IMG/VR virus record: IMGVR_UViG_3300009031_000221
Coordinates: 256,001 to 320,000 of that record
DNA: 64,000 nt
Reading direction: 5' to 3' (one strand)
Origin: a virus
Taxonomy: Duplodnaviria; Caudoviricetes
Shown: positions 938 through 59,116 of the stretch, piece by piece
How positions within the stretch are numbered: the first letter of the stretch is position 1
Layout: each line of letters begins with the position of its first letter
Translations under genes and position numbers: made by a program
The notes under the pieces: generated by a model
What the model was told of the DNA's origin: nothing
Databases searched by the model: none
Seen by the model: the letters and a program-made list of their open reading frames with translations, nothing else

Positions 938-965
938 ATCTACGCACTTCTCGGGGAAAGTAAGT
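938..965 (-). promoter_or_regulatory. Phage promoter motif CTTAC-N15-CGTAG
   Basis: ACTTAC-TTTCCCCGAGAAGTG-CGTAGAT, inside the tRNA array. Confidence 0.75.
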
Positions 966-983
966 CCCCGGTTATCATTAAAG

Positions 984-1056
984 TCAGGGTAGAGAGACTC
1001 GAACTCTCAACCTCATGCTCCCAAAGCACGCGCTCTACCATTAGAGCTACACCCTG
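984..1056 (-). tRNA. tRNA-Pro(TGG)
   Basis: Cloverleaf, loop TT-TGG-GA, no encoded CCA. Confidence 0.93.
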
Positions 1057-1068
1057 ATTACTAGACAC

Positions 1069-1142
1069 GGCTGGGGATGAAGGGGTCGAACCTTCGTTGA
1101 CGGAGTCAGAGTCCGGTGTCCTGCCAATTAGACGAATCCCCA
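1069..1142 (-). tRNA. tRNA-Gln(CTG)
   Basis: Cloverleaf, U1:A72, loop CT-CTG-AC. Confidence 0.92.
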
Positions 1143-1152
1143 ATTAACTTAG

Positions 1153-1227
1153 CGCCCACGGCAGGATTCGAACCTGCAACCTCTTCGTTCGTAGCGAAAC
1201 GCTCTATCCAAATTGAGCTACGCGGGC
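1153..1227 (-). tRNA. tRNA-Arg(ACG)
   Basis: Cloverleaf, loop CT-ACG-AA. Confidence 0.95.
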
Positions 1228-1329
1228 ATATTTCCCGGCTTTCCATCGTGGCCCCGAAGGAAAGTGTGCTGTAAGTGGTCCCCGGCAATGACCGGTTCAA
1301 GACTTCAAGCATCGCCCCGGGTGGGCGAT

Positions 1330-1403
1330 TGGCTGGGGTACAAGGATTCGAACCTTGATAAGCAGCTTCAAAGGCTGCCGTCCTGCCGTTAGACGATACC
1401 CCA
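1330..1403 (-). tRNA. tRNA-Gln(TTG)
   Basis: Cloverleaf, loop CT-TTG-AA, CCA. Confidence 0.95.
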
Positions 1404-1410
1404 ATATCTA

Positions 1411-1484
1411 GGTACTCCCAGAAAGAATTGAACTTTCATCGCACGGATATCAGCCGTGTGCTCTAACCGTTGAGCTATGAGAGC
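1411..1484 (-). tRNA. tRNA-Ile(GAT)
   Basis: Cloverleaf, loop CT-GAT-AT. Confidence 0.92.
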
Positions 1485-1485
1485 A

Positions 1486-1560
1486 TGGAGCGGACGACCG
1501 GATTCGAACCGGCGACGATTTGCTTGGCAAGCAAGAATTCTACCACTGAATTACGTCCGC
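1486..1560 (-). tRNA. tRNA-Gly(GCC)
   Basis: Cloverleaf, loop TT-GCC-AA, CCA. Confidence 0.95.
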
Positions 1561-1571
1561 ATAGACTAACC

Positions 1572-1647
1572 GGTCGGAATGACAGGATTTGAACCTGCGA
1601 CCCCTTGCTCCCGAAGCAAGTGCGCTACCAGGCTGCGCTACATTCCG
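1572..1647 (-). tRNA. tRNA-Pro(CGG)
   Basis: Cloverleaf, loop TT-CGG-GA. Confidence 0.95.
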
Positions 1648-1650
1648 ATT

Positions 1651-1699
1651 ACAGGTTCCGTACCCTCACGAGTATGGGTCGGGCTACCTGTGGAGCCCG
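1651..1699 (-). ncRNA. Perfect 6+6 bp H-type pseudoknot with hairpin in loop 3
   Basis: CGGGCT/AGCCCG and ACAGGT/ACCTGT interleaved, ACCC/GGGT hairpin; ends 3 nt before tRNA-Pro(CGG). Confidence 0.5.
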
Positions 1700-1708
1700 T
1701 CACAACAA

Positions 1709-1784
1709 GGCTTACCCTGTGGGAATTGAACCCACGACATCCTGCTTAACAGGCAGGCACTCTGACCATCTGAGTTAAGGGCAA
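1709..1784 (-). tRNA. tRNA-Asn(GTT) copy A
   Basis: Cloverleaf, loop CT-GTT-AA, G73. Confidence 0.92.
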
Positions 1785-1841
1785 GATCGCTAGGTATTTA
1801 TCAGGGTGTCTCAAACTGCCGAGATTCGATGGCAGGAGATA

Positions 1842-2498
1842 TTATCCGCGACGGTCACGATTGATGTCCGACCAGTTACTGGGGCCTGCCATTTCTTCTT
1901 CGTCTTTCTTCTTGATATTCCATTTCGCAGGTTCTTCTTTACGAGAAGGCGCTTTGACAGGTTCGTCCTTCTTAGCCCTATCCGCCCGTTCCTTCTTCAT
2001 CTTTTCTTCGTGTGCCTTGTCGCTCTGTTGCGCCTTGTCCTTCTCCGACCATTCCTTCACATCCGCATCTTCCTTCTCGCGTTGATTCTTGCGCTCGATC
2101 TTATCAACATGGTCCTTGGCGAGGTCTTGCGGGCTCTTCTTAGCAGGAGAACCTTTACCCTTTGCTTTGTCAATCAGACTCTGCGGGGGCTTCTTGGCAC
2201 CCGGATGATCCTTCCGATACTTCTCCCAAAGACCCTTCAAACCATCTAGCAGCCCGGCATCATGCCCGGCAGCGGCAAGCCGAAGTGCCGGGATGATCTC
2301 ACTACGTGACGCAGGGTTTTCGCTAGCTACCCTAAGCAGGGATTCACGGAGGAATGCAACCTTGTTGCCGTCATCATCCTTGTCATCTTCACCCTTGTCA
2401 TCTTCACCTGCCGCCTGACGGAGGATGGGGATTAGATGCTGGCGGATGCCGTCGGGATTGTTATGTGCTAGGCGTAACAACTTGTTATAAAGTGACAT
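1842..2498 (-). CDS. Hypothetical protein with duplicated helical motif and Lys/Glu/Asp-rich tail
   Basis: LLRLAHNNPDGIRQHLIPILRQAA and LLRVASENPASRSEIIPALRLAAA; GGAGA upstream of ATG 2498. Confidence 0.75.
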   Translation of the reverse strand: MSLYNKLLRLAHNNPDGIRQHLIPILRQAAGEDDKGEDDKDDDGNKVAFLRESLLRVASENPASRSEIIPALRLAAAGHDAGLLDGLKGLWEKYRKDHPGAKKPPQSLIDKAKGKGSPAKKSPQDLAKDHVDKIERKNQREKEDADVKEWSEKDKAQQSDKAHEEKMKKERADRAKKDEPVKAPSRKEEPAKWNIKKKDEEEMAGPSNWSDINRDRRG

Positions 2499-2600
2499 TT
2501 CCAAATCTCCGAATTAGGGGCATCCCCATAGCAATCATTGCTGACGGGCATGTTACCTACTGGATGTTTGGCTATAGAACCAATATTGATTCTAGGGAAA

Positions 2601-2676
2601 GGCTTACCGGGTGGGACTCGAACCCACGCACAACAAGGTAACAGCTTGTCGCTCTAAGCCGCTGAGCTACCGGTAA
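2601..2676 (-). tRNA. tRNA-Asn(GTT) copy B
   Basis: Cloverleaf, loop CT-GTT-AC, G73. Confidence 0.92.
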
Positions 2677-2692
2677 AACGTAGGCTTAATGC

Positions 2693-3178
2693 CTACAAGG
2701 TGGTGTGCATGCCCGCATGTACCTCACGGTGACATCGACAGCATAGCAAGTCACATTTGTCTAGTTCCGGTTGGACGGTATCCCATTTGCGATAATGCCC
2801 GTCCCGGAGGGAGAATTCCTTGCCCGCCGGATCCCTATGATGGAAATCCAGGGCGTCCGCACACTTAGCATAACCACATATTGAACATTTCCCGCCTTTG
2901 TATGCTAGAGCCTTAGCCTTGATTCGTTTCCGTACTTCCATGACGGAACATGAATTGCACTTGGATCGGTGGTGTCCCGCTGTGCGATTATAGATGTAAT
3001 CTCGATCACATGTAAGGCAATGTCCAACCGTATCGTCATCCATAGGAATCCGTCTCGTATTGTGCATCCCGAAAGGTGAACACGTGAGGCAATACTTTCG
3101 ACTGCCCAGATTCTTGTGTTCGCCGTTAATGATGACTCGAGTTGAGAACTTCGAGTCGCATTTCTTACATACAGGCAT
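2693..3178 (-). CDS. HNH endonuclease (Cys-rich, free-standing)
   Basis: CSICGY..C...LDFHH.DP..KEF...ELDKCDLLCCRCHREVH. Confidence 0.85.
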   Translation of the reverse strand: MPVCKKCDSKFSTRVIINGEHKNLGSRKYCLTCSPFGMHNTRRIPMDDDTVGHCLTCDRDYIYNRTAGHHRSKCNSCSVMEVRKRIKAKALAYKGGKCSICGYAKCADALDFHHRDPAGKEFSLRDGHYRKWDTVQPELDKCDLLCCRCHREVHAGMHTTL

Positions 3179-3237
3179 GATTGTAACCTAGTGCTATAGG
3201 TTAGCACACTCTAGCACTAGGCATAAACAATCTATTG

Positions 3238-3311
3238 GGCTCCCCGAGTAGGATTCGAACCTACGACTATCGCATTAACAGTGCGAAACTCTACCGCTGA
3301 GTTATCGGGGA
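3238..3311 (-). tRNA. tRNA-Asn(GTT) copy C
   Basis: Cloverleaf, loop CT-GTT-AA, G73. Confidence 0.95.
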
Positions 3312-3317
3312 ATCTTA

Positions 3318-3394
3318 TGGGGTGAACGATGGGATTTGAACCCACGTAGACTTGCTTCACAGGCAAGCGCCTAAACCACTCGGCCACGTTCACC
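3318..3394 (-). tRNA. tRNA-His(GTG)
   Basis: Encoded G-1 opposite C73, loop CT-GTG-AA, CCA. Confidence 0.95.
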
Positions 3395-3858: not shown

Positions 3859-4401
3859 TCAAGCGCTAATCGACGCTTCCGGCAAATAAAATCCCTTCGA
3901 TCGAATTTCGGTCAGAACTGAGTTGGGGACCATCCCCTCTACCTCATGAATCCTGCCACTTCGGATGGAGTCCCGTACCAAGGTGCTTCGCTCTGGCCCC
4001 TGATCGGGAACCACTAGCAACTCTACCATCTTGGTAATGTCATCCCATCGGCGCCATTTGCTGTGGCACTCCAGGTTGTCAGGCCCAATGATCATTACGA
4101 ACTGGGCGTGGGTGTAATTACGGACAAGGAATTCTACGAAGTCCACCGTATAGGTGATATCGAGCGCCTTCTCCATACTGTTCACCCTGACGGGCGAATG
4201 CATTCCGAATACCTGTTCGATTGCGAGTGTTGTCATTCGCAATCGATCTTCAAACGGAAGCATGTCCTTACCGAATGAGTGCTTCCACGCAGGATGCACC
4301 CACAGAGAATCGAGGTTCCCTACAGCCATGGCATGAGTCATGACCTTCAGGTGCCCAATGTGTGGGGGGTTGAACGCCCCTCCATACAATCCGATCCTCA
4401 T
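3859..4401 (-). CDS. nadD: Nicotinate-mononucleotide adenylyltransferase
   Basis: GLYGGAFNPPHIGH (HxGH), R..M, IIGPDNL..W..W, STLVR. Confidence 0.88.
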   Translation of the reverse strand: MRIGLYGGAFNPPHIGHLKVMTHAMAVGNLDSLWVHPAWKHSFGKDMLPFEDRLRMTTLAIEQVFGMHSPVRVNSMEKALDITYTVDFVEFLVRNYTHAQFVMIIGPDNLECHSKWRRWDDITKMVELLVVPDQGPERSTLVRDSIRSGRIHEVEGMVPNSVLTEIRSKGFYLPEASISA

Positions 4402-4442
4402 TACATCGTCCTTGTGACCCCTCGCTCGGGGGCCACATTGGT

Positions 4443-4470
4443 ATCTACGCACTTCAGTCAGGAAGTAAGT
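4443..4470 (-). promoter_or_regulatory. Phage promoter motif upstream of nadD
   Basis: ACTTAC-TTCCTGACTGAAGTG-CGTAGAT. Confidence 0.8.
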
Positions 4471-5160
4471 CTACACCTCGAAATAAACCCCGACCTCAGT
4501 CAGACGGGCATATGCGTCACGGTCAAAGCTGTACATCTTCGCACCCTTACGTCCCGTAGCACTTGTCTCCCGAAGCACCCCGTAGTTCAGGATCTTGCGG
4601 CGAAAGTTCCGCCGATCGATGGGGCGTGCCAAGACAATCTCATAGAGGCGCTGCAATTCCAGCAACGTGAACTCCTTGGGCAGGAACTCGATGCCGATCG
4701 GATGCCACCGAATCTTGGCGCGGAGCCGCTTGATCCCCGTGGCGATGATCGCGGAATGGTCAAAAGCAAGGGGGGGAAGTTTATCTACCGACCACCACAC
4801 GGCTTCTTTCGCGTCGTCCGCACCTTTCACCGCAGCAGTCTTGATCAATGCCATGTATGCCATCGAGATGACACGACCGCGAGGGTCACGGTCGGGGTCA
4901 TCGAACAGTGCCAGTTGTTCCATATAGGAGGCAACGAGCCCTGTTTCCTCCCCAAGTTCCCGATGAACTGCGGCAAGGGAAGTCTCTTTCTTTCCGATAT
5001 CAACGAAGCCGCCGGGCAAAGCCCAGTGCCCGTAGAAGGGTTCCCCTTCCCGGCCACGGAGGATCAAGAGGATCTTCAGGGCGTGTTCGGCAAAGTCTAC
5101 GCCGAAGACAACGGCATCTACCGTGTGAGATGCTTGTTCATGTTTGTAAGTGAATGGCAT
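4471..5160 (-). CDS. nrtR: NrtR-family Nudix + winged-HTH regulator (ADP-ribose sensor, possibly active pyrophosphatase)
   Basis: TVDAVVF, WALPGGF, RELGEETGL, RDPRGRVIS, LAFDH, FTLLELQRLYE, DRRNFRRK. Confidence 0.92.
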   Translation of the reverse strand: MPFTYKHEQASHTVDAVVFGVDFAEHALKILLILRGREGEPFYGHWALPGGFVDIGKKETSLAAVHRELGEETGLVASYMEQLALFDDPDRDPRGRVISMAYMALIKTAAVKGADDAKEAVWWSVDKLPPLAFDHSAIIATGIKRLRAKIRWHPIGIEFLPKEFTLLELQRLYEIVLARPIDRRNFRRKILNYGVLRETSATGRKGAKMYSFDRDAYARLTEVGVYFEV

Positions 5161-5169
5161 TGGGTATCC

Positions 5170-5742
5170 TTACAGGAGGTTGAGGGCTTTGAAGATTTCC
5201 ATGTACACGTGATACTCATGATCCGTGAACATGACGAAGGTGATCTCATCCATGTCCCATTCATCCGCAAGGCAAGCGCTTGCCGCCGCGAATGCCCCCG
5301 TCGTGATCGGGCATCCGTAGATGCCGCAGGAAATCGCGGGGAATGCAATGGTGTAGATGTCGTGTTGCTTGGCGGTCTTGAGGCAGTTGAGGTAGGTATT
5401 GACCAGGGCGACTTCAGGCATGATGTCATCGGGGAGAATCTCACCCGGGCGGCTTTTGCCTTGGCGCTCGAAAACGGGGCCAACCGTATGCAGGATGCGA
5501 TGCACATTGAGGTCATGCCCGCCGGTAACCTTCACGTCGCTGATTTCGCAACGAACTCCATTGGTGACGGGGAACTTCTCGCACTCTTCGCGGAGACCTG
5601 GGCCTGCAGCACGATGAATGGCACCATCCACGCCACCCCCGCCTAGCAGGCTCGGATTGGCGGCGTTGACCACGGCATCGCCAGTGAACTTGGTAATGTC
5701 CCCTTGGATGATTCGAATGTTTAGGCCCGGGTTCCGTTTCAT
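5170..5742 (-). CDS. Macrodomain protein (YmdB-like ADP-ribose hydrolase)
   Basis: GDITKF.GDAVVNAANPSLLGGGGVDGAIHRAAG, HTVGP, AFPAISCGIYG. Confidence 0.95.
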   Translation of the reverse strand: MKRNPGLNIRIIQGDITKFTGDAVVNAANPSLLGGGGVDGAIHRAAGPGLREECEKFPVTNGVRCEISDVKVTGGHDLNVHRILHTVGPVFERQGKSRPGEILPDDIMPEVALVNTYLNCLKTAKQHDIYTIAFPAISCGIYGCPITTGAFAAASACLADEWDMDEITFVMFTDHEYHVYMEIFKALNLL

Positions 5743-5776: not shown

Positions 5777-5804
5777 GTCTACGCCGGTAGATCATAAAGT
5801 AAGC
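5777..5804 (-). promoter_or_regulatory. Phage promoter motif upstream of macro-nrtR
   Basis: GCTTAC-TTTATGATCTACCGG-CGTAGAC. Confidence 0.75.
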
Positions 5805-6393
5805 CTTCCCCGTAGGCTTTTGCCGGATGATGTTGAACGGCAATGCCAAGACTAGGCTGAATCGGGGTATCCTTGATTGGGCCTTCTTGCATGCCGTGCC
5901 GCCGATGCTGGAAGCAGTCGCTAGTAAGGCTGCCATGCGCCATGATGCCATAGGCACGGACACGCCCATGCCATCTACCGTTGACATTGACGCAGTGCCC
6001 TACGTCCCCTGACTCTCGTTTGAACCAACCACAGTCATTGCATGAACCATCGATTTCCTGCATCCATATGATGTGTTCCTTGTAGAGCGGGCGGCAACCC
6101 TTATGGATGAGGAACCACGTAGGCCACCAATATCCTGCAAGGATGTCCGCTTCGGACCTATCGGCAACGGGTTCACTGCACAGGTAGCATTGCGTGCCTG
6201 ACCAGACTGCCCAATTACGTTGACCTTGGATCCAAGCCAGGACATGGGGCTTCTTGCCGTCCTTCACCTCGAGTTCCCGGGCGACCTCAGAATCTTCAAC
6301 CCCACGACGTGCCATCTGGCGTTCGGTTTCAGGATCCGTGCCGTCAAAGACAAGGTTGAAGAATCTATCCCGGTCATTCTTGGTGTCTATCAT
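5779..6393 (-). CDS. Hypothetical protein with CxxC motifs
   Basis: 204-aa ORF in operon orientation. Confidence 0.65.
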   Translation of the reverse strand: MIDTKNDRDRFFNLVFDGTDPETERQMARRGVEDSEVARELEVKDGKKPHVLAWIQGQRNWAVWSGTQCYLCSEPVADRSEADILAGYWWPTWFLIHKGCRPLYKEHIIWMQEIDGSCNDCGWFKRESGDVGHCVNVNGRWHGRVRAYGIMAHGSLTSDCFQHRRHGMQEGPIKDTPIQPSLGIAVQHHPAKAYGEGLLYDLPA

Positions 6394-10616: not shown

Positions 10617-11339
10617 TTAGTCTGTGCCTTGGAACCCATGGCGAATCCGCCGCCGATCCCGGCTATTCCACTTAGCGATGTCGTTCAAAGCATCTTGGGC
10701 GCTTGCCATGTCCGCGAACAATGCTTCTTCGGCACCGTCATCGTTCCCGTCAATTCGGACTTTGACGGGCTGCTCAACCGATGGGTACAAGGACACGTCG
10801 ATCTTGTACAAGGACTGCTCATACTTGGATCGCTCAAAGGGCGTCATTTCAGACAACGCCTCCGTCAGCATTTCCTCGGTCAATTGTGACCCTTGGCACA
10901 CTGTATCGCCGATCTTGCACAGGAGGCGTGCCTTGTACTTCTCGCCGATCCGGTACGGCAAGTTGTAGAACGACGTTCGATTCCGTGCTACCGTATGCTG
11001 GATGTTTTGAGCGGTCGTGGGCAGGTCATACGGCACAAGGTCGTCCATCCCATCCCAGTCTTCGTAGTCGGTATGCCCTTCCGCGATGGTAATCTCCCGA
11101 CGACCTTTACGAACTGTGTACGTGCTGTAGTCGGTGATGCTGACGCGACCATAGTTGCCCGGCCAAGCCCCACCCGGAACCCATTCGCCTTCGGGGAACT
11201 GCAGCATCAGTATTGTGTCGCTATCCCTTTCGGTCTGACGATCGAGGTATTCCAGCAGCTTCCCATCCGTGAGTTCCTGGAGGAACTTCTCACGGTATGC
11301 CTGGGGGGTCATTAGGCGGTCATTTGGAAGGTTTCGCAT
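10617..11339 (-). CDS. Hypothetical protein
   Basis: 240-aa ORF in operon orientation. Confidence 0.7.
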   Translation of the reverse strand: MRNLPNDRLMTPQAYREKFLQELTDGKLLEYLDRQTERDSDTILMLQFPEGEWVPGGAWPGNYGRVSITDYSTYTVRKGRREITIAEGHTDYEDWDGMDDLVPYDLPTTAQNIQHTVARNRTSFYNLPYRIGEKYKARLLCKIGDTVCQGSQLTEEMLTEALSEMTPFERSKYEQSLYKIDVSLYPSVEQPVKVRIDGNDDGAEEALFADMASAQDALNDIAKWNSRDRRRIRHGFQGTD

Positions 11340-11340
11340 G

Positions 11341-11652
11341 CTAGGCCCCCTGAGTCACGCTGCCGACGATAGCGGGACGCCACTCAAGCAACTGCTCGCG
11401 GGTCAGCGAAACCGTCTTGCGATTCAGGCTGCCCACGCCAATGGTGACGATGAGCGGAGCCCGGTTGTTGTGGAGGTGCTTGTTGTCCGCACAAGCACGC
11501 TTGCGCTTCACGTCTCGTTCCTTGACGACGCCGCAGCGATGTCCGGTCTCCTTGGTCTGATAGCGGACGATATCGCCAGCCTTGATGTCCCGGAATTCCG
11601 TTTCGGACACGGGGAGCACTTTCTCAGTTGCGATGACGATACGGGCGTTCAT
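11341..11652 (-). CDS. Hypothetical protein
   Basis: Downstream of promoter motif at 11696. Confidence 0.6.
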   Translation of the reverse strand: MNARIVIATEKVLPVSETEFRDIKAGDIVRYQTKETGHRCGVVKERDVKRKRACADNKHLHNNRAPLIVTIGVGSLNRKTVSLTREQLLEWRPAIVGSVTQGA

Positions 11653-11695: not shown

Positions 11696-11723
11696 ATCTA
11701 CGCTAGACTTTAGGAAAGTAAGT
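11696..11723 (-). promoter_or_regulatory. Phage promoter motif
   Basis: ACTTAC-TTTCCTAAAGTCTAG-CGTAGAT. Confidence 0.8.
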
Positions 11724-11724
11724 T

Positions 11725-12941: not shown

Positions 12942-13853
12942 CTAGGCCAGGAATTCAACCGTGGTGCTGGTCTTCATGCCCTTCTTGAGCATGTCCTGAA
13001 CGAACGCATCGCCGAGGAAATCGAACCCGCCCACGTTGGAAGTCGCATCCGTGAGGAGGACGAGCTTCTCAACGTACTTCGGGTTGCTGAAGCAGCTTGC
13101 GATGTCGCGGCCCGTGTTGGCAACGCAGTGCGAAAGCGCCTCGCCGCCCAAGGCGATGATGTCGGCCTCTTCCAGCGACGTGATCAGGTTGGTGTTGACC
13201 TGGGTCGAAGGGTCATTCGGATCAGGGACTTCCGCCTTGACTCCCGAAAAATGCTCCGTCCAGGGGTTGTTCCCCTTGACAACGTAGTTCACGCGGGCGA
13301 ACTGCTGGATCTCCCATTCGCACAGAGCCTTGGACAGTTCATCCACGATGCTCCAGCCCCAGGTACCGACAACGCAGTGGATCGGCCAAATGACGTGAGG
13401 GTAACGGCCCTTGAGCGCCAGCGCCTCCAGGTAGCCGAAGCTGCCCGTGCCCTTGTCCGAACCCGCCTTGCGAGCCGGGCCACCGCTATGCAGCATGGAC
13501 GGCAGGAAGGTCGTGTACTCCTCATCGGTGTAGACCGGGGCGCCCGTGCTGAAGTCGATCTTCACGATCCGCTTGCCGTCCGGGTGAATGCCCAAGGCGG
13601 TGAAGGGGGTCGGGAGGGCGCCATCACCCACGCGCTTCCACCAATTCGGGCGCTCGATGCCGATCGACTGGTGGGAGTCCAACGTGACGGTGATGTCATC
13701 GATGCGGGAGCCGAGGCGATTGATCATGGTGGCGAAGCGAGCGCAGTCCGCCGCAGCACCGGGAACAACCAAGGTTCCCTTGTTGCCATGACCGTCGTCA
13801 GCCACAACGAAATCCTTCTGAGGGTCAACGATAAAAACGTGCGTCTTCAACAT
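12942..13853 (-). CDS. pncA: Nicotinamidase-like cysteine hydrolase (isochorismatase family)
   Basis: IVDPQKDF, TLDSH, WPIHCV, VKG.N..TEHFS, GEALSHCV catalytic Cys. Confidence 0.8.
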   Translation of the reverse strand: MLKTHVFIVDPQKDFVVADDGHGNKGTLVVPGAAADCARFATMINRLGSRIDDITVTLDSHQSIGIERPNWWKRVGDGALPTPFTALGIHPDGKRIVKIDFSTGAPVYTDEEYTTFLPSMLHSGGPARKAGSDKGTGSFGYLEALALKGRYPHVIWPIHCVVGTWGWSIVDELSKALCEWEIQQFARVNYVVKGNNPWTEHFSGVKAEVPDPNDPSTQVNTNLITSLEEADIIALGGEALSHCVANTGRDIASCFSNPKYVEKLVLLTDATSNVGGFDFLGDAFVQDMLKKGMKTSTTVEFLA

Positions 13854-13904: not shown

Positions 13905-13932
13905 ATCTACGAGGATGTCCCGTAAAGTAAGC
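13905..13932 (-). promoter_or_regulatory. Phage promoter motif upstream of pncA-like gene
   Basis: GCTTAC-TTTACGGGACATCCT-CGTAGAT. Confidence 0.8.
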
Positions 13933-13937
13933 CTTGC

Positions 13938-15029
13938 CTAGATGCCGTAATCGGCGAAGTTGTCCGACAGGATGCCCTTCATAACCAGATCCGTACGGCA
14001 ACCCAACTGCGGGATGTTGGGATTGAGCTTGTGGCGGGTCTGCTTCTCGGCTTTGCGGGCACCCTTGAGCAGTGCCTCGAGTTGATCGTAGCCCAGCCCC
14101 GCATCCTTGAAAGCGTCACTGAAGACCGCACGACCCAACAAGTCCCGCATATCCTCCTGCGACAGGGTATCCCCGAACAGGACATCCTCGTTGGTCTTGC
14201 AATCCAGGATGATGTTCGAAACATTCTCATCCAGGAACCGGGCCACCCGCTCGATGGTGCCGATCTTGTAGACCTTGCCGGTGTCAGGATCGAGCTTGCC
14301 GTACGTGAACGCAGCGCCTGTCCAGTTCTTGATCTCCGACTCATCGTTGTGGGTGTCACCATTGCCCCACAGGTCCGCCGAAGGGATGGCACCGATGGTT
14401 TCCGCATAGGCAGCCTTGGCGCCCGTGTTGCCATTGTAGCCCTCAAGGGTTTCGCCCAGCTCGAAGCACAACTGGTAGACCTCGGCCTTCGAGAGCATCG
14501 CAATGGGGTTCGAATCCACTTCCCCATCGCCACCCTTCTGGTAGAAACGCAGGAAGCGATCCTCGCACTCGTTGCCCGTACCGTGACGAATGCCGCCACC
14601 CGTAATGCGGTTGTAGCCACGGCCAAGCGGGGCACGCAGGCACGAACGAACGCTACCCAGGATGGTCGGGTCGGCAGCGAGGCGGGCTTCAATCTCCGCC
14701 ATGTCGAATCCCGCCGCCTGCAAGGTGCGCTTGATCTCCGCAAGGATCGTGTTGTAGGACTCCGTGAAGTCGCCAACCGCCAACTTGCAACCCAAGGCAT
14801 TCGCAAGGCGAATCGCCCGGGCGGTCTGGACGGGATTGGAGTTGATGGCGAGGTGCGCCAACGTGACGTTCTCGGCACCCTGTGCAATCACGAGAAGTCC
14901 CGCCAAGGCAGCGGAATCGATGCCGCCGGACAAGTCCAACTCGGCACGCAAGATGCCCGCATCGGCATGCATCTTGCGAATGGCATGAACACGATTTTGC
15001 AATAGGGCTTTGGGATTCAAAACTGGCAT
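13938..15029 (-). CDS. nadE: NH3-dependent NAD+ synthetase
   Basis: LSGGIDSA PP-loop, N/S.R..LR, GTGNECE, FYQKGGDG, PIAMLSKAEVY, PSADLW; no glutaminase domain. Confidence 0.9.
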   Translation of the reverse strand: MPVLNPKALLQNRVHAIRKMHADAGILRAELDLSGGIDSAALAGLLVIAQGAENVTLAHLAINSNPVQTARAIRLANALGCKLAVGDFTESYNTILAEIKRTLQAAGFDMAEIEARLAADPTILGSVRSCLRAPLGRGYNRITGGGIRHGTGNECEDRFLRFYQKGGDGEVDSNPIAMLSKAEVYQLCFELGETLEGYNGNTGAKAAYAETIGAIPSADLWGNGDTHNDESEIKNWTGAAFTYGKLDPDTGKVYKIGTIERVARFLDENVSNIILDCKTNEDVLFGDTLSQEDMRDLLGRAVFSDAFKDAGLGYDQLEALLKGARKAEKQTRHKLNPNIPQLGCRTDLVMKGILSDNFADYGI

Positions 15030-15069
15030 GGGGCAATCTCCTTTTGTGTGGCGGTATTCGCCTTGTGTT

Positions 15070-15097
15070 AGCTACGCAGGCACTGGGAAAAGTAAGT
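15070..15097 (-). promoter_or_regulatory. Phage promoter motif upstream of nadE
   Basis: ACTTAC-TTTTCCCAGTGCCTG-CGTAGCT. Confidence 0.8.
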
Positions 15098-15990
15098 CAC
15101 ATAGGGTGTAATGTTTTCACCTGAATCAGGGCAGGAGCCAACTCCGCAGCTTTACGGGCATTCGGATGGCTATCGGTAACGATGATCTGGTCAATGCATG
15201 ACTTGCGGAATTTTTCAACCGCATTCCCTACGAAGACCCCGTGAGTTGCGGCGCACCTAACAGTCAAGGCACCGCGATCCTTGAAGGCCTGGGCTGCTTT
15301 GATCATCGATCCACCCGTAGCAATCATGTCATCAAAGATGACCACATTGCATCCATTTACGTTATCGCCAAGGACGTTCAGGATTTTGGTTTCCGAACCG
15401 GACAGGCGCTTCTTCTCGATGTGTGCAAATCCAACGCATGCAGCATCCGCCAACTTCTTGGCCTCATACACACCGCCATCGTCTACCGTGGCATATACGA
15501 GAGGGTGGACAGGCTGATCCATCCGGGTACTGCGAATCGCACGCTCGAGTAATGGACGGTAGATCAGGTTCTTCGTGACAACCGGGCCTTCAAAGTAGTG
15601 GAGGACGAGATCCTTGTGGAGTTCCACGAAGTACAACCGGACGCCAGGGAATACATTGCCCAGGCCCGACCATTGACGGGCTTGGAACTTCGCCAGTGCC
15701 GCAAATTCGCCGTCTACCCGTTCGGAACGGGCATGGCGGAAGTAGGTGTTGATCACAGAGAAACGATGTGGCCCTTGGCTGGCAATCTCATACGCCGCTG
15801 CCAAGAACAGTTCCGATGCTGCAGCCGAAGAACATTCGCCAATCAAGCAGATTTCGTCGTCAGGGGAGATCATCGGAATGGATACCGCATTCTCCCCATC
15901 CGGGAAGGTCTTGATGACAACCCGGTTGTCGTAGCCAATGTTAGCCCCATAAGGGATCGAATCCGGCATGTAGATATTACGCAGTGCCAT
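15097..15990 (-). CDS. prs: Ribose-phosphate pyrophosphokinase (PRPP synthetase) family
   Basis: FPDGE, YFRHARSER, VELH, D.GG, KKR, IFDDMIATGGS, ATHGVF. Confidence 0.88.
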   Translation of the reverse strand: MALRNIYMPDSIPYGANIGYDNRVVIKTFPDGENAVSIPMISPDDEICLIGECSSAAASELFLAAAYEIASQGPHRFSVINTYFRHARSERVDGEFAALAKFQARQWSGLGNVFPGVRLYFVELHKDLVLHYFEGPVVTKNLIYRPLLERAIRSTRMDQPVHPLVYATVDDGGVYEAKKLADAACVGFAHIEKKRLSGSETKILNVLGDNVNGCNVVIFDDMIATGGSMIKAAQAFKDRGALTVRCAATHGVFVGNAVEKFRKSCIDQIIVTDSHPNARKAAELAPALIQVKTLHPM

Positions 15991-17535: not shown

Positions 17536-17563
17536 ATCTACGCAGACGGTGTGAAAAGTAAGT
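17536..17563 (-). promoter_or_regulatory. Phage promoter motif upstream of pncB-prs
   Basis: ACTTAC-TTTTCACACCGTCTG-CGTAGAT. Confidence 0.8.
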
Positions 17564-17576
17564 GTGGCCTTGTCAG

Positions 17577-18560: not shown

Positions 18561-18565
18561 TAGAG

Positions 18566-18593: not shown

Positions 18594-18629
18594 GATACGT
18601 GCCCCGCATGGGGTTAATGAAGGTCGCAG

Positions 18630-48777: not shown

Positions 48778-49746
48778 TCAATATGACGTGGTGGTCGGGG
48801 AGATGCCATAATACAGAATCTGTTGCTTGACAAGACCTTCATAGACACCAAATCGATTTGCTATAATGGGTATTGGTACCCCTTGATCAATTAATACTTG
48901 AATTATTTCTTTTGGCAAACTGAGTTTGGGCCTGCGTCCTGTATATGTACTTGTGACCAAGTGATGGAGGTCTGCATCAGGCCATGTCCGCTGCCTACCT
49001 TTGGTATTACCAAGGGTGGATAGCGCTGTATGGATAAACCCTATAGGGACCTTCATACCCAGGGCTATATGCTTAGGGGTGCTGCCTGCATCGGTCAGTT
49101 GTCGTACTAGTGCTAGGTCAATCATGCTATTGACTGCATCCATGTCACGACAAAGAAACCCTGCCGCTAACTTATAGCGTAGGGTATCCAGGATATAAGG
49201 CTTGATGATATCGAGGAAGGCACGTGCTTGGACTTCTCCTCGAACCACGATACGTGATGAAGTCCCAACCTCAGCCATCGCTTGAATGCCGAAGTGTGCA
49301 AGGATGGCAAGGGCTACGTCATGACTACGTTCATGACATGAGAACGAGGGCCAGTGTTGGTGCATGCCGTCATCCATATACCACACTGCTAGGGCTAAGG
49401 GTGTCATCATAGGTATGACAGACTCATGGAACTTCTTACGGAGCTTGCCGTCACATGATGGCGTAGAATTGGCATAGAACATTTCCCACCAAGGAAGCAA
49501 TTCATCGTATTTCCGTACACGGAAGCCTACAGCCCCTTGATGAGTAGCCTTCTTTGGGGGTACCTCTGTTAATGTTCCTGCATAATCGCCCCAGTATGCC
49601 ATCTTCCACAGGACATATTCCAACTGCCCCTTGGCATGGAATTCACTATAGGACGCACCTGTGGCGCCACGGCCTAGGGATCCATCCCCAAGCATGGATC
49701 CCAGTAATATTGATTGTAGTGGTTCGGTCAAAACGAGATTTTTCAT
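48778..49746 (-). CDS. Free-standing LAGLIDADG homing endonuclease with C-terminal HTH-like region
   Basis: ILLGSMLGDGSL and LAVWYMDDG. Confidence 0.88.
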   Translation of the reverse strand: MKNLVLTEPLQSILLGSMLGDGSLGRGATGASYSEFHAKGQLEYVLWKMAYWGDYAGTLTEVPPKKATHQGAVGFRVRKYDELLPWWEMFYANSTPSCDGKLRKKFHESVIPMMTPLALAVWYMDDGMHQHWPSFSCHERSHDVALAILAHFGIQAMAEVGTSSRIVVRGEVQARAFLDIIKPYILDTLRYKLAAGFLCRDMDAVNSMIDLALVRQLTDAGSTPKHIALGMKVPIGFIHTALSTLGNTKGRQRTWPDADLHHLVTSTYTGRRPKLSLPKEIIQVLIDQGVPIPIIANRFGVYEGLVKQQILYYGISPTTTSY

Positions 49747-49989: not shown

Positions 49990-50916
49990 CTAGGACATGA
50001 AGGGGCTGAGTGTCCAGTTGCCGATAGTCTGGCGTAGGAACACTAGGGCACGGGATACAGTGGCCTTGCTGATGCTGAGGGACTGAGCTATCTCACCCCT
50101 CTCATATCCCTCAATGACCATAGGTAGGATACGTAGGGCCGTGGCCTCGAGTGCTTGGTCCTTCTTTGTAGTACTCTGTTCCTTGATGTACGTAATGAAA
50201 TCCCGCATCAGGATAGGGTCATGTACCTGTACACTAGAACCACCACCATTGAACTGCGTCTTGCCACAGGCATCTGCTACGTCCATCGACACAGCCTGCC
50301 CATCCTCATAGCCAATGATCCCTATCTGCTCAACAGACCTCTGCCTTGATACCTTGCGATGGTAATTCGACAGGATGCATCCTGCTACCATGTGGACGTA
50401 GTGCCCAAAGCTAGACTTCGCAGGATCCCACGCACACGTGCCACTGTTGCGTACCAGGAGCCCCTTATAGACCTCCTGCAATACATCCTCAGGCTCATAC
50501 CCCATCGCATAGATACGCCTGCCATACCCCGCAAATAACAACTTCGCTACCTCATGCCCTCTTCTCTGCAAATCTATCCCCTGACTCGGACTCTTGGCCC
50601 TAGGGGTATTTGGGGCTACCGTATTTGGGGCTACCGTAATTGATGTAGGCGATAGAGGCCCTGTAGCAAACATATCCAATATGGGAAACCCAGTAGTTAA
50701 TTGATTTTCGTATTTCCCCTGCCGGAAATACCTGTCCCATGTCCAATGCCTAGCCTCAGGATGTCCTGTCAATCCAATGAGTAACTGCCGTTTAGTGGGG
50801 AATACTTTTCCCTGAGCCTTGTATTTCCCATCAGGCAATAGGGCAATGGGAATGGCACCATCCTCATATCTGCTATAAATGGTAGATACCAAGCCAGTAT
50901 CAGCAACGGTTAACAT
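49990..50916 (-). CDS. ECF-like sigma-70 factor with N-terminal extension
   Basis: Region 2: EDVLQEVY..L...WDP.KSSF.HYV..VA...L.NY.RK; region 4: EGY...EIAQSL.ISKATV.RAL. Confidence 0.75.
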   Translation of the reverse strand: MLTVADTGLVSTIYSRYEDGAIPIALLPDGKYKAQGKVFPTKRQLLIGLTGHPEARHWTWDRYFRQGKYENQLTTGFPILDMFATGPLSPTSITVAPNTVAPNTPRAKSPSQGIDLQRRGHEVAKLLFAGYGRRIYAMGYEPEDVLQEVYKGLLVRNSGTCAWDPAKSSFGHYVHMVAGCILSNYHRKVSRQRSVEQIGIIGYEDGQAVSMDVADACGKTQFNGGGSSVQVHDPILMRDFITYIKEQSTTKKDQALEATALRILPMVIEGYERGEIAQSLSISKATVSRALVFLRQTIGNWTLSPFMS

Positions 50917-51195
50917 AGGTAGGCCCCCATAGACAATTTCCAGATTCTGTTGTTCGCGACTAGTTTCATTTTGTGTGGGGGTTTATTTGGCGCCCCGACA
51001 TATCCTTGGACCATCTCGCGGAACCCTGTGATTTGACAAGAACAGGGTTCAGGCGTGTCTGGTGGAAGTAGTACACTACTCGGAGAAGTAAGTCAAGGAA
51101 AGGGATGGAAAGGGGGTAAGAAGGGGGATATTTGTCTGGGTGATTTCTGGACGTAGTCTGTATAGGTGTTGTAGGGGGTAATGTGATATGACCCT

Positions 51196-55252: not shown

Positions 55253-55522
55253 CTACCACTTGATGATCCAGGAGGTACTTTTGGGTTGGGACGTGTACGT
55301 GGGTTGGAATCCACGTTTTAGTAGATCCGCTTTGATGGATTCGGCACCATCGTCAACAAAGTCAAGATCGATACATACTAGGTTGAGGTGTGGATGTGTT
55401 TTCACCTGATTGCGGATCCTCTGATCGATGGCCCGCAAAGCGTCATTGATATTATTTGTGGAGTACTGCTGTGCCAACAGTTTTACCCCCGCAGCAGTCA
55501 GAAGATTATCATCCATGTGCAT
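55253..55522 (-). CDS. Hypothetical protein
   Basis: Follows promoter motif. Confidence 0.6.
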   Translation of the reverse strand: MHMDDNLLTAAGVKLLAQQYSTNNINDALRAIDQRIRNQVKTHPHLNLVCIDLDFVDDGAESIKADLLKRGFQPTYTSQPKSTSWIIKW

Positions 55523-55549: not shown

Positions 55550-55577
55550 ATCTACGCAGGTTGGGCTAGAAGTAAGC
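55550..55577 (-). promoter_or_regulatory. Phage promoter motif
   Basis: GCTTAC-TTCTAGCCCAACCTG-CGTAGAT. Confidence 0.8.
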
Positions 55578-55584
55578 CCCGCGA

Positions 55585-56043
55585 TTAGACCTTGGGCTTG
55601 CCGTTGGTCAGATGGGCCAGGAGCGCCGCGAACTCGAACTTGTTGAGCCGACGGTCATCCGGCAAATCCTTCAGGCGCAACAAGATTTCGCTTTCGTCAC
55701 CCTTGGCGACGTTGAGGAATGCCAGGTCTTCCTCGGCGATGTCCACTTCCCACAGGGGACGGGCACGCTTGCCGACGAAGACGTAGGGCAAGTCGGAACC
55801 GGCGTAGGAACTGGAATGCCCGTGGTCGGGGACTTCGCCGCCCGGGGAGTGCATGTTGAAGGTTTCGCACACAACGACCTGATTTTCCCACATGACACGC
55901 AACGTGGTGCCCTCGGGGATGATCAGGGCATGCTTGCGGTCATGCGTGCCGGAGGCGGAAATGGACTCCTTGCGCTGGATGAAGCGGAAGCCCCAGTCAT
56001 TGCCCTCTGCCAATCGAATGAATTTCATCGGTTCCTCCACCAT
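55585..56043 (-). CDS. Hypothetical protein
   Basis: GC3-rich ORF after promoter motif; start probably 56028. Confidence 0.7.
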   Translation of the reverse strand: MVEEPMKFIRLAEGNDWGFRFIQRKESISASGTHDRKHALIIPEGTTLRVMWENQVVVCETFNMHSPGGEVPDHGHSSSYAGSDLPYVFVGKRARPLWEVDIAEEDLAFLNVAKGDESEILLRLKDLPDDRRLNKFEFAALLAHLTNGKPKV

Positions 56044-56082
56044 GTAGTTCGTGTGACAGGGTTTAGTCCATGTCTACACGTC

Positions 56083-56110
56083 ATCTACGCGATGGTTCCG
56101 GTAAGTAAGT
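56083..56110 (-). promoter_or_regulatory. Phage promoter motif
   Basis: ACTTAC-TTACCGGAACCATCG-CGTAGAT. Confidence 0.8.
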
Positions 56111-56279
56111 CATCCAAACAGAACGTAGTAGACGCTAGCGATAACGGTAAGCCCTACCACGAATCCTAGGAGCCTATAGCGTGTAGGGGAATAGGATACC
56201 TTGGTGGCTGGTGCGTCTGCCAAAGCTTCGTCCAACTGGGCATCGATCTCAGCGCTTGTCATGACCTTCATGCGACGTG

Positions 56280-56564
56280 TCATAGTGCCCTCGTGTCCTG
56301 TTCGGTTACTTCTGCCAGCCAATCCCGAAATCCTGTATTAGCCCACGGCATTGCAAGCCGATTGGTTTCATTCTTCAGGGTGCTAAATGACATCTTGAAT
56401 GGGTCATTCTGACCAAACAAGTCCAGATAGGCACGCTCCCATAACCGGCGTTGATCGGGCAAGCATCCATCTATGGCAGCTAGTTGCACGGCACGATAGT
56501 AAACAAAGGGATGTTTGAATTCCCCTTTATTTGCAAGCACACGTTCAAGATAGCCCGGTGTCAT
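56280..56564 (-). CDS. Hypothetical protein
   Basis: ATGA-coupled ORF. Confidence 0.55.
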   Translation of the reverse strand: MTPGYLERVLANKGEFKHPFVYYRAVQLAAIDGCLPDQRRLWERAYLDLFGQNDPFKMSFSTLKNETNRLAMPWANTGFRDWLAEVTEQDTRAL

Positions 56565-56941
56565 AGCGGGTCTTCCTCAATGTCATGCTGTGTCCCAAGG
56601 CAAAGGAATTCCAGTTCATCATGGATGTGATCCAGTTGGGCCTGCCGATACTGGGTCGCAGCGGCGATCAACATGATCTTCCTGGGACTCGAGTGATCGA
56701 ACAGCAATCCATAGTAGCCCAAAGCATCGGTAGACGCTTCCGCCAACTTCGTTGCAAGCTCGAGCACATCAGGCGTAGGAGGCCAGTTGAAGAAGTTCAT
56801 GACTGCCTCAGGCGTTTTCGTGACCGGATGCCCCGTACGACGCAGAAACTGCCCTGCATCCAACACACGGTTGCGGCCTTTGGATTCGTCGCTCTGCATG
56901 TAGGCGGAGATCAATTCAGATGTCAAGTAATCGTCAATCAT
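56561..56941 (-). CDS. Hypothetical protein
   Basis: Coupled ORF. Confidence 0.6.
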   Translation of the reverse strand: MIDDYLTSELISAYMQSDESKGRNRVLDAGQFLRRTGHPVTKTPEAVMNFFNWPPTPDVLELATKLAEASTDALGYYGLLFDHSSPRKIMLIAAATQYRQAQLDHIHDELEFLCLGTQHDIEEDPL

Positions 56942-57602
56942 TTGTGTATCCTTTATAGTGCGGGAACAAGGCGGAACGCGCTTGAATCCCTAGATTCTGT
57001 CCTCTGCAATCATCAAGGGGTTTGGTCGCATGCTTCCAAGGATTCCCGATAATGTCCTGTTTTTCCATAGGGGAGTCGGAATAGTATGCTGCCATGCCCA
57101 GTTGAGTGAATAGCACACTCACAGGTCCCTCCTGGGTATCCGAAATAGCTACGGGGTGTACCTGAATAGGGATACAAACTTGATTGACTCGTGGGTCAAT
57201 CTCGCGGGCGGTTCCCACCAAGGCAGTGATGCAGTCGTTCAATGAAATCCGCAGTGATTCAATGGCATTATTGGCAATAACCTCCATTGAATCACTGGGG
57301 TTTGTGTTGTATGCCAGTTCAAATAGCGGGATAGTTACCCTCCTGCCTGTCCGGTTCTCTAGAATATCGTTCCCATCCTCCCCGAGGAAGAATACAGGTG
57401 TGTTCGGATCTTTGTCATAGATAGGGGCACATCCTGAAGGCAAATCATCGAAATGAACGTGAATGGACTCCCATAGGATACCCTTTGGAAGGATGTTTGC
57501 TTTAGATACCAGGGGAGTGGCAAGGGATGATCGGGTTTGGAAGCCGAGAATGGCAGCGATCGATACTCCCAATGTATTGTGGAGGAATGTTCGACGATTC
57601 AT
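56934..57602 (-). CDS. Tat-like signal peptide fused to a possible major-capsid-protein fragment
   Basis: MNRRTFL + h-region; LP.G..PIYDKDP...FFLGEDG.DIL....RRV.IPLFELA.N recalled from large-phage capsid proteins, not verified. Confidence 0.6.
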   Translation of the reverse strand: MNRRTFLHNTLGVSIAAILGFQTRSSLATPLVSKANILPKGILWESIHVHFDDLPSGCAPIYDKDPNTPVFFLGEDGNDILENRTGRRVTIPLFELAYNTNPSDSMEVIANNAIESLRISLNDCITALVGTAREIDPRVNQVCIPIQVHPVAISDTQEGPVSVLFTQLGMAAYYSDSPMEKQDIIGNPWKHATKPLDDCRGQNLGIQARSALFPHYKGYTND

Positions 57603-57614
57603 GATCCCGTATCC

Positions 57615-57941
57615 TTATAGCGTGAAGGCGTATGGTCCCGTGGTCATAGGGACTTCCTTGACTGTACCGTATTCCTGCCGTGCCCATTGGCGGAGCAAAC
57701 GCCCAGGTTCGTCCGATGTACCCTCAATGAGATCCCAACGGACTGGAGGTCCGTCCACGTCCCCTTCATCATTTGTCGTGTCAATGACAAATTGTTCGAC
57801 TTGGTACATGTAGTCTATACCCGTTCGCCCCCCAACCATTGCGTACAAATTTCCTGGGGGTTCCGATGCGTCATAAATCTTCAAGAACATGCATTCCTCC
57901 TTAGTGCACGATGGGTTGCCCCATTTTGACCGGTAACCCAT
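57615..57941 (-). CDS. Hypothetical protein
   Basis: Probable start at MFLKIY after AAGGAGGA. Confidence 0.55.
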   Translation of the reverse strand: MGYRSKWGNPSCTKEECMFLKIYDASEPPGNLYAMVGGRTGIDYMYQVEQFVIDTTNDEGDVDGPPVRWDLIEGTSDEPGRLLRQWARQEYGTVKEVPMTTGPYAFTL

Positions 57942-58416
57942 CGTTCACGTCATGGACCGCGTAGGGTTCCGCCAATGGGTACGATTGAGCTATCCTTAGG
58001 GATGTTTCCAACAGGTCAGGGGTTGTCATATCAATCGCTTCTTTTCGCCGTTTACGATCTTTTTCATCGTTCAAAGTCCAAAGCGTCTTCGTGGATCGCC
58101 CCATGAATATTTCATGTTGGAGGATCTCAAAATTGGGACCAACAAATACACGGGCTACCAATGTGGGTGTCGGGGGTTCTTCATACCTCCCCAAAACGAA
58201 CATCCATATGCCGTCAAAACATGAATCAATGCTTATGCGAACCCACTTCTCTGGCATGGCATCACAGAGGTGATTTGTGGCAGCATGATCGGTTTTTGGC
58301 ATATTATTTTCCATGATTCCGTCGATTCTTCCCAATTGCCCGCGTCTTGATGTCGTCATGGATGACATAGACCGTAGCGATGAATTGTGCTGTCGTGATG
58401 ATACCGATAAGGGCAA
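57901..58416 (-). CDS. Hypothetical protein
   Basis: ORF in operon; start uncertain. Confidence 0.55.
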   Translation of the reverse strand: MPLSVSSRQHNSSLRSMSSMTTSRRGQLGRIDGIMENNMPKTDHAATNHLCDAMPEKWVRISIDSCFDGIWMFVLGRYEEPPTPTLVARVFVGPNFEILQHEIFMGRSTKTLWTLNDEKDRKRRKEAIDMTTPDLLETSLRIAQSYPLAEPYAVHDVNDGLPVKMGQPIVH

Positions 58417-58466
58417 TGCTACTTACGGTGAGTGCCGTAATGCTAGCTGCCTGCTTGATGGATTTT

Positions 58467-58907
58467 CTACTGAGCCTCATTGGTTTCTTCCTTCTTCTCA
58501 ATGCCCTGCATAGAGGCCATCAGGTTTATGGCGAAGATCCCAAAGGCATGACTCTCCGGTGAGTCATCAGGCGGAATGAACAGCCTTGGGTGTCCTTCCG
58601 CGATGGCCTTAGCCCTTGCCTTGGCCTCTAACGTGTACCAAGCAGGCAACTTGTGCCGATAGTTGGAAGTCGGGCCAGTGATGCACACCAAGTTCAGCAG
58701 GGTGGCACGATCAACGTCTACCGCATCAAGGATGGCATTCAGACCTTCGCAGTCATTGAGCATCCCGTTGAACATGATGTCTTGAATCGCCTCATATTCT
58801 CCGTCCGTCATATCCTCTTGCGAATAGAAGTTGATGGATTCCAGTGTTTCAGATGGCGTCATTTGATTTCCTCTTTCAGTTCGCCCATGGGTTGGAGATC
58901 CTTCCAT
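58467..58907 (-). CDS. Hypothetical protein
   Basis: Probable start MTPSET after GAGGA. Confidence 0.6.
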   Translation of the reverse strand: MEGSPTHGRTERGNQMTPSETLESINFYSQEDMTDGEYEAIQDIMFNGMLNDCEGLNAILDAVDVDRATLLNLVCITGPTSNYRHKLPAWYTLEAKARAKAIAEGHPRLFIPPDDSPESHAFGIFAINLMASMQGIEKKEETNEAQ

Positions 58908-59065
58908 TTTTCAGCCCCGGCGGAGGTCTCACGAAAGCTTATGATCGTTACGTCTACCCTGTAACCGTCAGGTGTGGAGTAGACGTAGGTAGGACAACCT
59001 CGGTTTGCCATGTCGGCACTATAGAATCCGTAGATCTTATTGCGTTTGCGGAATATGCGACACAT
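58859..59065 (-). CDS. Hypothetical protein
   Basis: First ORF after promoter motif. Confidence 0.55.
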   Translation of the reverse strand: MCRIFRKRNKIYGFYSADMANRGCPTYVYSTPDGYRVDVTIISFRETSAGAEKWKDLQPMGELKEEIK

Positions 59066-59088
59066 GTACCATAAACCTCTTCAGATTG

Positions 59089-59116
59089 ATCTACGCATAC
59101 ACGGGTTGAAGTAAGC
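59089..59116 (-). promoter_or_regulatory. Phage promoter motif
   Basis: GCTTAC-TTCAACCCGTGTATG-CGTAGAT. Confidence 0.8.

Follow-up and report, generated by a model that had tools for sequence, protein, structure and literature searches.

A strict bipartite element, CTTAC-N15-CGTAG, occurs 18 times in a 64,000-nucleotide (nt) stretch of a groundwater virus genome and, with a probability of about 0.7, is the main promoter class of this phage, with GRCTTACTTYY as the putative -35 element, GCGTAGAT as the putative -10 element, and a phage-encoded extracytoplasmic function (ECF)-like sigma factor as the predicted reader. The stretch, called the window here, comprises bases 256,001-320,000 of a single 536,053-bp IMG/VR virus record (IMGVR_UViG_3300009031_000221) from groundwater metagenomes; coordinates are those of the window unless marked "genome". 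The record has a G+C content of 52%, is rated complete by CheckV, and is a lytic-type huge phage. Genes were called across it with a crude codon log-odds model, resulting in 716 genes (88.7% coding). Motif statistics, placement and orientation, the sigma fold, and the motifs of relatives were taken from the sequence, and from these we infer where transcripts begin and which sigma acts as the reader.

All 18 copies proposed in a first-pass annotation of the window are present at the coordinates it listed, which add one or two flanking bases, and they are the only matches (ten on the minus strand and eight on the plus strand), against a chance expectation of 0.03 and a maximum of 1 in 100 dinucleotide shuffles. 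The 15-nt spacer is invariant in all of them, and the flanking pattern holds in 18 of 18: A or G before CTTAC, T then T or A after it, and A or C then T or C after CGTAG. Extending the search to the whole genome, as that annotation had suggested, gave 127 exact copies; at other spacers between 10 and 21 there are three copies at 11, one at 16, and zero elsewhere, so that 127 of 131 CTTAC/CGTAG pairs share the one rigid spacing expected of an ECF promoter. Alignment of the copies extends the element to G-R-CTTACTT-Y-Y-N10-GCGTAGAT, in which the N10 is unconserved and each position of GCGTAGAT, a CGT-type -10, is conserved at 84-99%. A weight-matrix scan is bimodal (126 sites of at least 24 bits and four of 18-24 bits), and a shuffled genome gives zero sites of at least 10 bits. 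Numbering from the C of CTTAC as position 1, a pyrimidine-purine step lies 7-8 nt past CGTAG (position 32 a pyrimidine in 86%, position 33 a purine in 87%), followed by a G-rich patch; the transcription start is probably the purine 8 nt past CGTAG, at position 33. Outside full sites, RCTTACTT occurs seven times in the genome versus about 28 expected from base composition by rough arithmetic, which suggests that stray -35 half-sites are selected against.

Sites are intergenic in 125 of 130 cases by the gene calls. At 106 of the 130, a co-oriented open reading frame (ORF) or tRNA begins no more than 80 nt from position 33, the commonest gap to the start codon being 28-39 nt. Six divergent pairs are present, with a C(1)-to-C(1) distance of 15-17 nt in five and 23 nt in the sixth. 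Within the window, 17 of 18 copies are followed by a co-oriented gene that begins 18-73 nt past the predicted start site, and the remaining copy, at 964 on the minus strand, points at tRNA-Pro 724-800 with a tRNA array beyond; the claim that every copy faces an adjacent gene or RNA is thus borne out, as is the back-to-back pair (17538-17562, minus; 17578-17602, plus), which is one of the six. The promoter copies and the genes they face are as follows (aa, amino acids).

938-966 (core 940-964), minus strand: promoter copy, start predicted ~932; tRNA-Pro(ggg) 724-800, then tRNA-Lys, Asp, Ala
4443-4471 (core 4445-4469), minus strand: promoter copy, start predicted ~4437; cytidylyltransferase-like (NMN adenylyltransferase-like) gene 3859-4401
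5777-5805 (core 5779-5803), minus strand: promoter copy, start predicted ~5771; Macro-domain gene 5170-5742, then NrtR-like Nudix gene 4471-5160
11696-11724 (core 11698-11722), minus strand: promoter copy; gene 11341-11652, 103 aa, no assigned function
13905-13933 (core 13907-13931), minus strand: promoter copy; gene 12942-13853, 303 aa, no assigned function
15070-15098 (core 15072-15096), minus strand: promoter copy, directly past the stop codon of a PRPP-synthetase-like gene 15097-15990; NAD synthase gene 13938-15029
17536-17564 (core 17538-17562), minus strand: promoter copy, left arm of the divergent pair; gene 16003-17457, 484 aa, no assigned function
17576-17604 (core 17578-17602), plus strand: promoter copy, right arm of the divergent pair; ArdC-like anti-restriction gene ending at 18560
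18565-18593 (core 18567-18591), plus strand: promoter copy; gene 18630-18899, 89 aa
19502-19530 (core 19504-19528), plus strand: promoter copy; small gene ending at 19865
21131-21159 (core 21133-21157), plus strand: promoter copy; gene 21212-23704, 830 aa, no family match
26180-26208 (core 26182-26206), plus strand: promoter copy; HD-domain gene ending at 26904
34126-34154 (core 34128-34152), plus strand: promoter copy; PheRS-alpha-like gene 34198-35208 (tRNA-synt_2d and FDX-ACB)
35215-35243 (core 35217-35241), plus strand: promoter copy; HD_4 gene 35281-35865
38130-38158 (core 38132-38156), plus strand: promoter copy; rIIA 38195-40291, then gene 40328-41278
55550-55578 (core 55552-55576), minus strand: promoter copy; gene 55253-55516, 87 aa
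56083-56111 (core 56085-56109), minus strand: promoter copy; gene 55585-56028, 147 aa
59089-59117 (core 59091-59115), minus strand: promoter copy; gene 58859-59065, then 58467-58862

Position, orientation, fixed spacing and the pyrimidine-purine step are all promoter-like, in line with the reading of the motif as a promoter in the first-pass annotation. The motif also marks the borders of many short gene cassettes, as an oriented regulator-binding site or a cassette-junction or recombination signal would, but such a non-promoter role is extremely improbable: the motif is non-palindromic, always oriented like the gene or tRNA that follows it, set at the short fixed distance before start codons given above, and paired divergently between divergent genes, and its two conserved blocks have promoter-like spacing followed by a pyrimidine-purine step.

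Site density across the genome is high at 200-536 kb and sparse or nil at 0-20, 40-100 and 140-200 kb. The motif-free stretches contain the portal, large terminase, RecD-like helicase and ribonucleotide reductase genes, which argues that the class serves tRNAs and accessory genes, not the structural and replication core. Within the window, the proposed regulon content (NAD salvage, ArdC, PheRS-alpha-like, HD and rIIA genes) was recovered. The genome also carries 68 tRNA genes and one tmRNA within about 50 kb (genome 208343-259393, the tail end of which is window 1-3393), and several of the tRNA arrays there begin with promoter copies. A conserved hairpin in the 5' leaders was considered and rejected, since the first 45 nt at 126 sites have a mean folding energy close to that of shuffled leaders (-9.1 vs -8.5 kcal/mol). 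Short GC-rich hairpins are nevertheless seen at the predicted 5' end of many window leaders, such as 4437-4414 (minus), 18599-18614 (plus) and 26214-26229 (plus).

A candidate reader is encoded within the window itself.

49990-50916, minus strand: predicted ECF-like sigma factor gene, 308 aa

Its product has an extra domain at residues ~10-70, a disordered linker at 74-110, region 2 at ~116-196, and a region 4 helix-turn-helix at ~251-307. The AlphaFold (AF2) model, with a mean predicted local distance difference test (pLDDT) score of 82, places helices at 116-196 and 251-307. Searched against PDB with Foldseek, it returned sigma factors as 50 of the 50 listed matches, the ECF factors SigH and SigE ranking top (probability 0.99), and in these matches helices 116-196 overlie region 2 of the ECF sigmas; a difference in the orientation of the two domains makes the E-values borderline. 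A profile built from 30 homologs matches sigma-H (PDB 3mzy, E 1.8e-5) from region 2 through region 4, and the sigma70-ECF model TIGR02937 aligns to residues 131-298 (E 8e-6). The Pfam Sigma70_r2 match is weak (E 0.036), and Sigma70_ECF and GerE give sub-threshold matches at residues 262-297. Region 2 is thus indicated by the start of the 3mzy alignment, TIGR02937 and the structural model, and region 4 by the Pfam matches, the 3mzy alignment and the model helices; the protein is predicted from sequence and model to be a divergent two-domain ECF-like sigma factor. More than 600 homologs were found, several on contigs of 200-520 kb, and a megablast search of the sigma region against a phage collection gave no match. 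The N-terminal domain and linker have no family or fold assignment, and the database gene call begins at an internal Met (171 aa) and omits the domain. Encoded at 50707-50887, it is a small beta sheet plus helix with the pattern LYSRY..DG..PV...ARQLLI.LTGHPEARHWTFDRYFR and is found throughout the sigma family.

The sigma gene does not appear to belong to the class that its product would read. No motif copy lies directly upstream of it in five of six phages (G000-G003 and G005, from the comparison below), and in the sixth, G004, a same-strand copy lies 1.9 kb upstream. In the window phage it is preceded by a different signal.

51068-51096, minus strand: candidate host-type promoter of the sigma gene, TTGACT (51096-51091), 17-nt spacer, TACTAC (51073-51068)

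The arrangement TTGACx-N17-TAnnAn precedes the sigma gene in three phages (the window phage, G001 and L204); these host-type promoters were found by eye and carry no computed significance. An apparent orphan -35 half-site of the motif at 51093 is better explained as part of this TTGACT. Directly downstream of the sigma gene is a LAGLIDADG homing endonuclease gene (48778-49746, minus strand) with its own promoter-like site, TTGACT-N17-TATCCT, at 49781-49753. Similar sites of the TTGACA type accompany two further genes for endonuclease or helix-turn-helix proteins, near genome 396181 and 497475.

At 57 IMG/VR loci a relative of the window sigma is encoded; five whole contigs (G001-G005) and one fragment (L204) were compared. 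Each of the five contigs has one sigma ortholog and its own dispersed, fixed-spacer bipartite motif.

G001, 436 kb with terminal repeats: sigma identity 43%; CTTAY-N15-AGTAG, 57 copies
G002, 402 kb: sigma identity 38%; GGTAAC-N15-AGTAG, 36 copies
G003, 297 kb: sigma identity 36%; GTTCA-N16-CCGTA (GGGGGTTCAAC...CTCCGTAT), 22 copies
G004, 180 kb: sigma identity 36%; GGGGGTTCC-N15-CCGTA, 26 copies
G005, 105 kb: sigma identity 53%, region 2 only; GGTTAC-N15-TCCGT, 25 copies
L204 fragment, 24.6 kb: sigma identity 56%; GGGCTTA(C/G)-N15-GCGTAGATC, 4 copies

L204 is the closest relative and shares the rIIA, rIIB and NMNAT-like gene neighborhood with the window; the region 4 helices of the two sigmas are nearly identical (SKATISRALTYLRQ in L204 vs SKATVSRALVFLRQ). 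One L204 copy (11266-11290, minus strand) is located some 800 nt past the 3' end of the sigma ortholog and is oriented toward it with no gene called between, and could drive an antisense or small RNA. Apparent repeats in the 20-kb loci L050, L057, L084, L099 and L069 were rejected as motifs, being tandem coding repeats or tRNA genes.

Because the motif differs by phage and yet keeps its architecture and the GTA core of the -10, a phage-encoded, co-evolving reader is favored over a host ECF sigma. Across the sigma family, region 2 is nearly invariant and region 4 variable, which as a soft argument would fit a conserved -10 core and a variable -35. The exact window motif occurs elsewhere in IMG/VR only as chance singletons, and the extended motif at no more than one copy per genome across 185,579 bacterial and archaeal species (one genome each), so the motif is private to this phage. 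The first-pass annotation had left open a phage or a host regulon; given the lineage-specific variants and no multi-copy genome among those species, the balance leans to the phage. A host ECF sigma exploited by the phage, with the phage sigma-like genes serving other promoters, is accordingly a very unlikely reader, although the fixed spacer and CGT-type -10 are an ECF layout. Both half-sites differ among related phages, anti-sigma factors normally keep cellular ECF sigmas inactive, the motifs that those sigmas recognize are looser, and near-perfect sites (126 of 130) are as expected of a dedicated phage factor.

Besides the host alternative, several observations weigh against a phage ECF-like sigma as reader, or against ORF 49990-50916 as that sigma. 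Cellular ECF promoters typically have an AAC-core -35 and a CGT-type -10; the earlier assignment to this promoter type therefore stands for the -10 but not for the -35, where GRCTTACTT has a TTAC core, although an AAC-type -35 does exist within the clade (GGTAAC in G002). The ECF-like label given to the ORF likewise stands for the two-domain fold but not by curated rule: it scores 25.5 bits against a cut-off of 42.9 for TIGR02937 and 17.9 against 21.1 for Pfam Sigma70_ECF, and is below the curated cut-offs of every sigma model in Pfam and NCBIfam. A search of sequencing runs located the sequence in four DNA runs of one groundwater study and in no RNA run. Nor is this ORF the only candidate. 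Scanning the genome with sigma region models identified a second gene, genome 194060-195196 (378 aa), whose product combines sigma regions 2 and 4 with a winged-helix domain at the N terminus. This gene is conserved in G001-G004, though much more diverged in G003 and G004, and lies outside the regulon: it stands alone on the plus strand, and in four phages the surrounding 8 kb hold no copy of the motif. Its host-type promoter, likewise found by eye (genome 193859-193888, and in G001 and G002: TTGACT-N16-TAAAGT, TATTGT and TATGGT, with TGG directly before the -10), is better conserved, and more convincing, than that before ORF 49990-50916. The recognition helices of both sigmas differ among phages with the same -35 element; their covariation with motif changes (window sigma in six phages, the other in five) follows phylogeny in both cases, and the sequence evidence analyzed here separates neither candidate from the other.

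The 194060-195196 protein is thus the main alternative reader, and a rather unlikely one; the motif would still be a phage promoter class, and the window ORF would serve another. Its AF2 model (pLDDT 81) has top Foldseek matches that are nearly all sigma factors, its ESM Atlas neighbors by features and structure are sigma families, and a lone gene with a conserved, TGG-extended host-type promoter fits an immediate-early sigma switching on a large class. Its sigma likeness is weaker, however (Foldseek E 0.07-0.8, no sigma match in a profile-vs-PDB search, TIGR02937 E 0.067), and its family is small (33 homologs vs more than 600 for the window sigma) and much diverged in G003 and G004, which keep strict motifs. 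Its region 4 helix also keeps an RAA-x-L core though the -35 elements differ, which is a soft argument. Profile-profile comparison of the two families aligns only the region 4 helix-turn-helix (probability 45%). ORF 49990-50916 is favored because it is nearer to canonical ECF sigmas, because its family is much larger and shows good conservation in each phage that has a motif of this kind, and because its domain-wise conservation parallels that of the motif; we put it at roughly even odds of being the reader.

A third sigma-like gene, genome 365569-366348 (259 aa), is third in an operon headed by a motif copy and so belongs to the regulon; no full-length ortholog of it was found in the closest complete relatives. 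With a second conserved sigma-like protein outside the regulon and a third inside it, the description of ORF 49990-50916 as the obvious reader had to be dropped. Other hits of the scan were rejected as sigmas: genome 395994-396083 and 497316-497426 are homing-endonuclease-type and excisionase-like proteins, and genome 255188-255751 and 208728-209117 look like HNH-type nucleases. A 201-aa protein (genome 161786-162391, minus strand), encoded inside the structural-gene block and 50-71% identical across the clade, has two region 4-like helix-turn-helix domains and no region 2, and may act as a late transcription factor.

The catalytic domains of multisubunit RNA polymerase (beta, beta') have no Pfam match in the genome, and a search for a T7-type polymerase was uninformative, there being no match in any control genome either. 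Since no phage RNA polymerase was detected, the host polymerase with a specificity factor is the likely enzyme. In the proposed scheme, host RNA polymerase with the host primary sigma would first transcribe a few early genes from TTGAC-type promoters, the phage sigmas among them; the phage ECF-like sigma would then bind the host core polymerase, and this holoenzyme would fire some 130 short units comprising tRNA arrays, NAD salvage, anti-restriction, rII, HD, macro-domain and PheRS-like genes and many small genes with no assigned function. A broader reading, which we hold tentatively and at somewhat less than even odds, is that a clade of huge groundwater phages runs most accessory genes through a private sigma-promoter pair that has co-diversified by lineage, forming a natural orthogonal ECF-like series (half-site pairs CTTAC/CGTAG, CTTAY/AGTAG, GTAAC/AGTAG and GGTTC/CCGTA), in which the N-terminal domain may dock on or modify the host polymerase and a second early sigma may share the programme.

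A phage sigma with its own promoters is a well-established principle; the scale, the genes served, the N-terminal domain and the clade-wide divergence differ here. The nearest studied parallel is Salmonella phage 7-11, whose sigma factor gp47 recognizes eight late promoters of the form GTAAtg-N16-aCTA, from which transcription starts 6-9 nt downstream (PMC8948821). Like the window ORF, gp47 is phage-encoded with regions 2 and 4, and as proposed for the window ORF it has a private bipartite promoter; in 7-11 it works with the host core polymerase, and its own gene depends on host sigma-70 transcription (PMC8948821). Unlike 7-11, with eight promoters for late structural genes in a far smaller genome, there are about 130 promoters here, serving tRNAs and accessory or take-over genes, and the portal and terminase genes are in motif-free regions. 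The related sigma gp36 of coliphage phiEco32 replaces the host sigma on the host core, recognizes a single element (tAATGTAtA), has no region 4 match, and needs the co-factor gp79 (PMC8948821). It too is a phage sigma with a phage-specific element, and its structure (9m7y) is at rank 21 of the Foldseek matches to ORF 49990-50916, but here both half-sites are strictly conserved; the likeness to gp47 is drawn from its description, and that to gp36 from its description and the fold match.

Cellular ECF (group 4) sigmas such as B. subtilis SigW and M. tuberculosis SigH and SigL (PMC6372665) share regions 2 and 4, a rigid spacer, and a CGT-containing -10 with the system described here. Unlike them, ORF 49990-50916 has an additional conserved domain of about 70 aa at the N terminus, together with a long linker, and falls below curated cut-offs, the -35 core differs, and the regulon is far larger and more uniform. 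"Group 2" jumbo phages, which lack an RNA polymerase, encode sigma factors and small helix-turn-helix factors that redirect the host polymerase (Iyer et al., 2021, PMC7824862); where it treats these factors, that account describes proteins without cognate promoters, whereas a promoter class and its divergence across relatives are described here.

The predicted start points, about 130 in number, define short units and amount to a readable map of transcription in an uncultured 536-kb phage, setting the tRNA, NAD salvage and anti-defense genes and many with no assigned function apart from a structural and replication core that uses other signals. Members of the sigma family are frequent on huge-phage contigs, so the same approach should find promoters in many of them. 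The lineage-specific variants form testable sigma-promoter specificity pairs and may serve as orthogonal expression parts.

A second promoter-like motif, TCGGTAG-N6-(T/G)AT, has about 15 intergenic copies in the genome, 45-80 nt before start codons and mostly in places that lack the main motif, such as upstream of the ribonucleotide reductase gene and of genes of 1770 and 726 aa. Sites of this type are at genome 51954, 58174, 101855, 115359, 189431, 201727, 207906, 381886, 449104, 466905, 488909, 508374, 511906 and 529812, with zero in the window, and GGTAG(G/A) often follows 20-23 nt after the motif. Its core is unchanged in G001 (8 copies) and G004 (11 copies), counted at any location.

Among the genes of the window, an NAD-related cluster (3859-5742 and 13938-15990, minus strand) includes NMNAT-like, Macro-domain, NrtR-like Nudix regulator, NAD synthase and PRPP-synthetase-like genes, and four promoter copies (4469, 5803, 13931 and 15096) are in or beside these stretches. 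The PheRS-alpha-like gene (34198-35208, plus strand) encodes a single chain in which a class II core is joined to an FDX-ACB anticodon-binding domain. Such an auxiliary gene is unusual in a phage; it adjoins HD-domain genes and has its own promoter copy.

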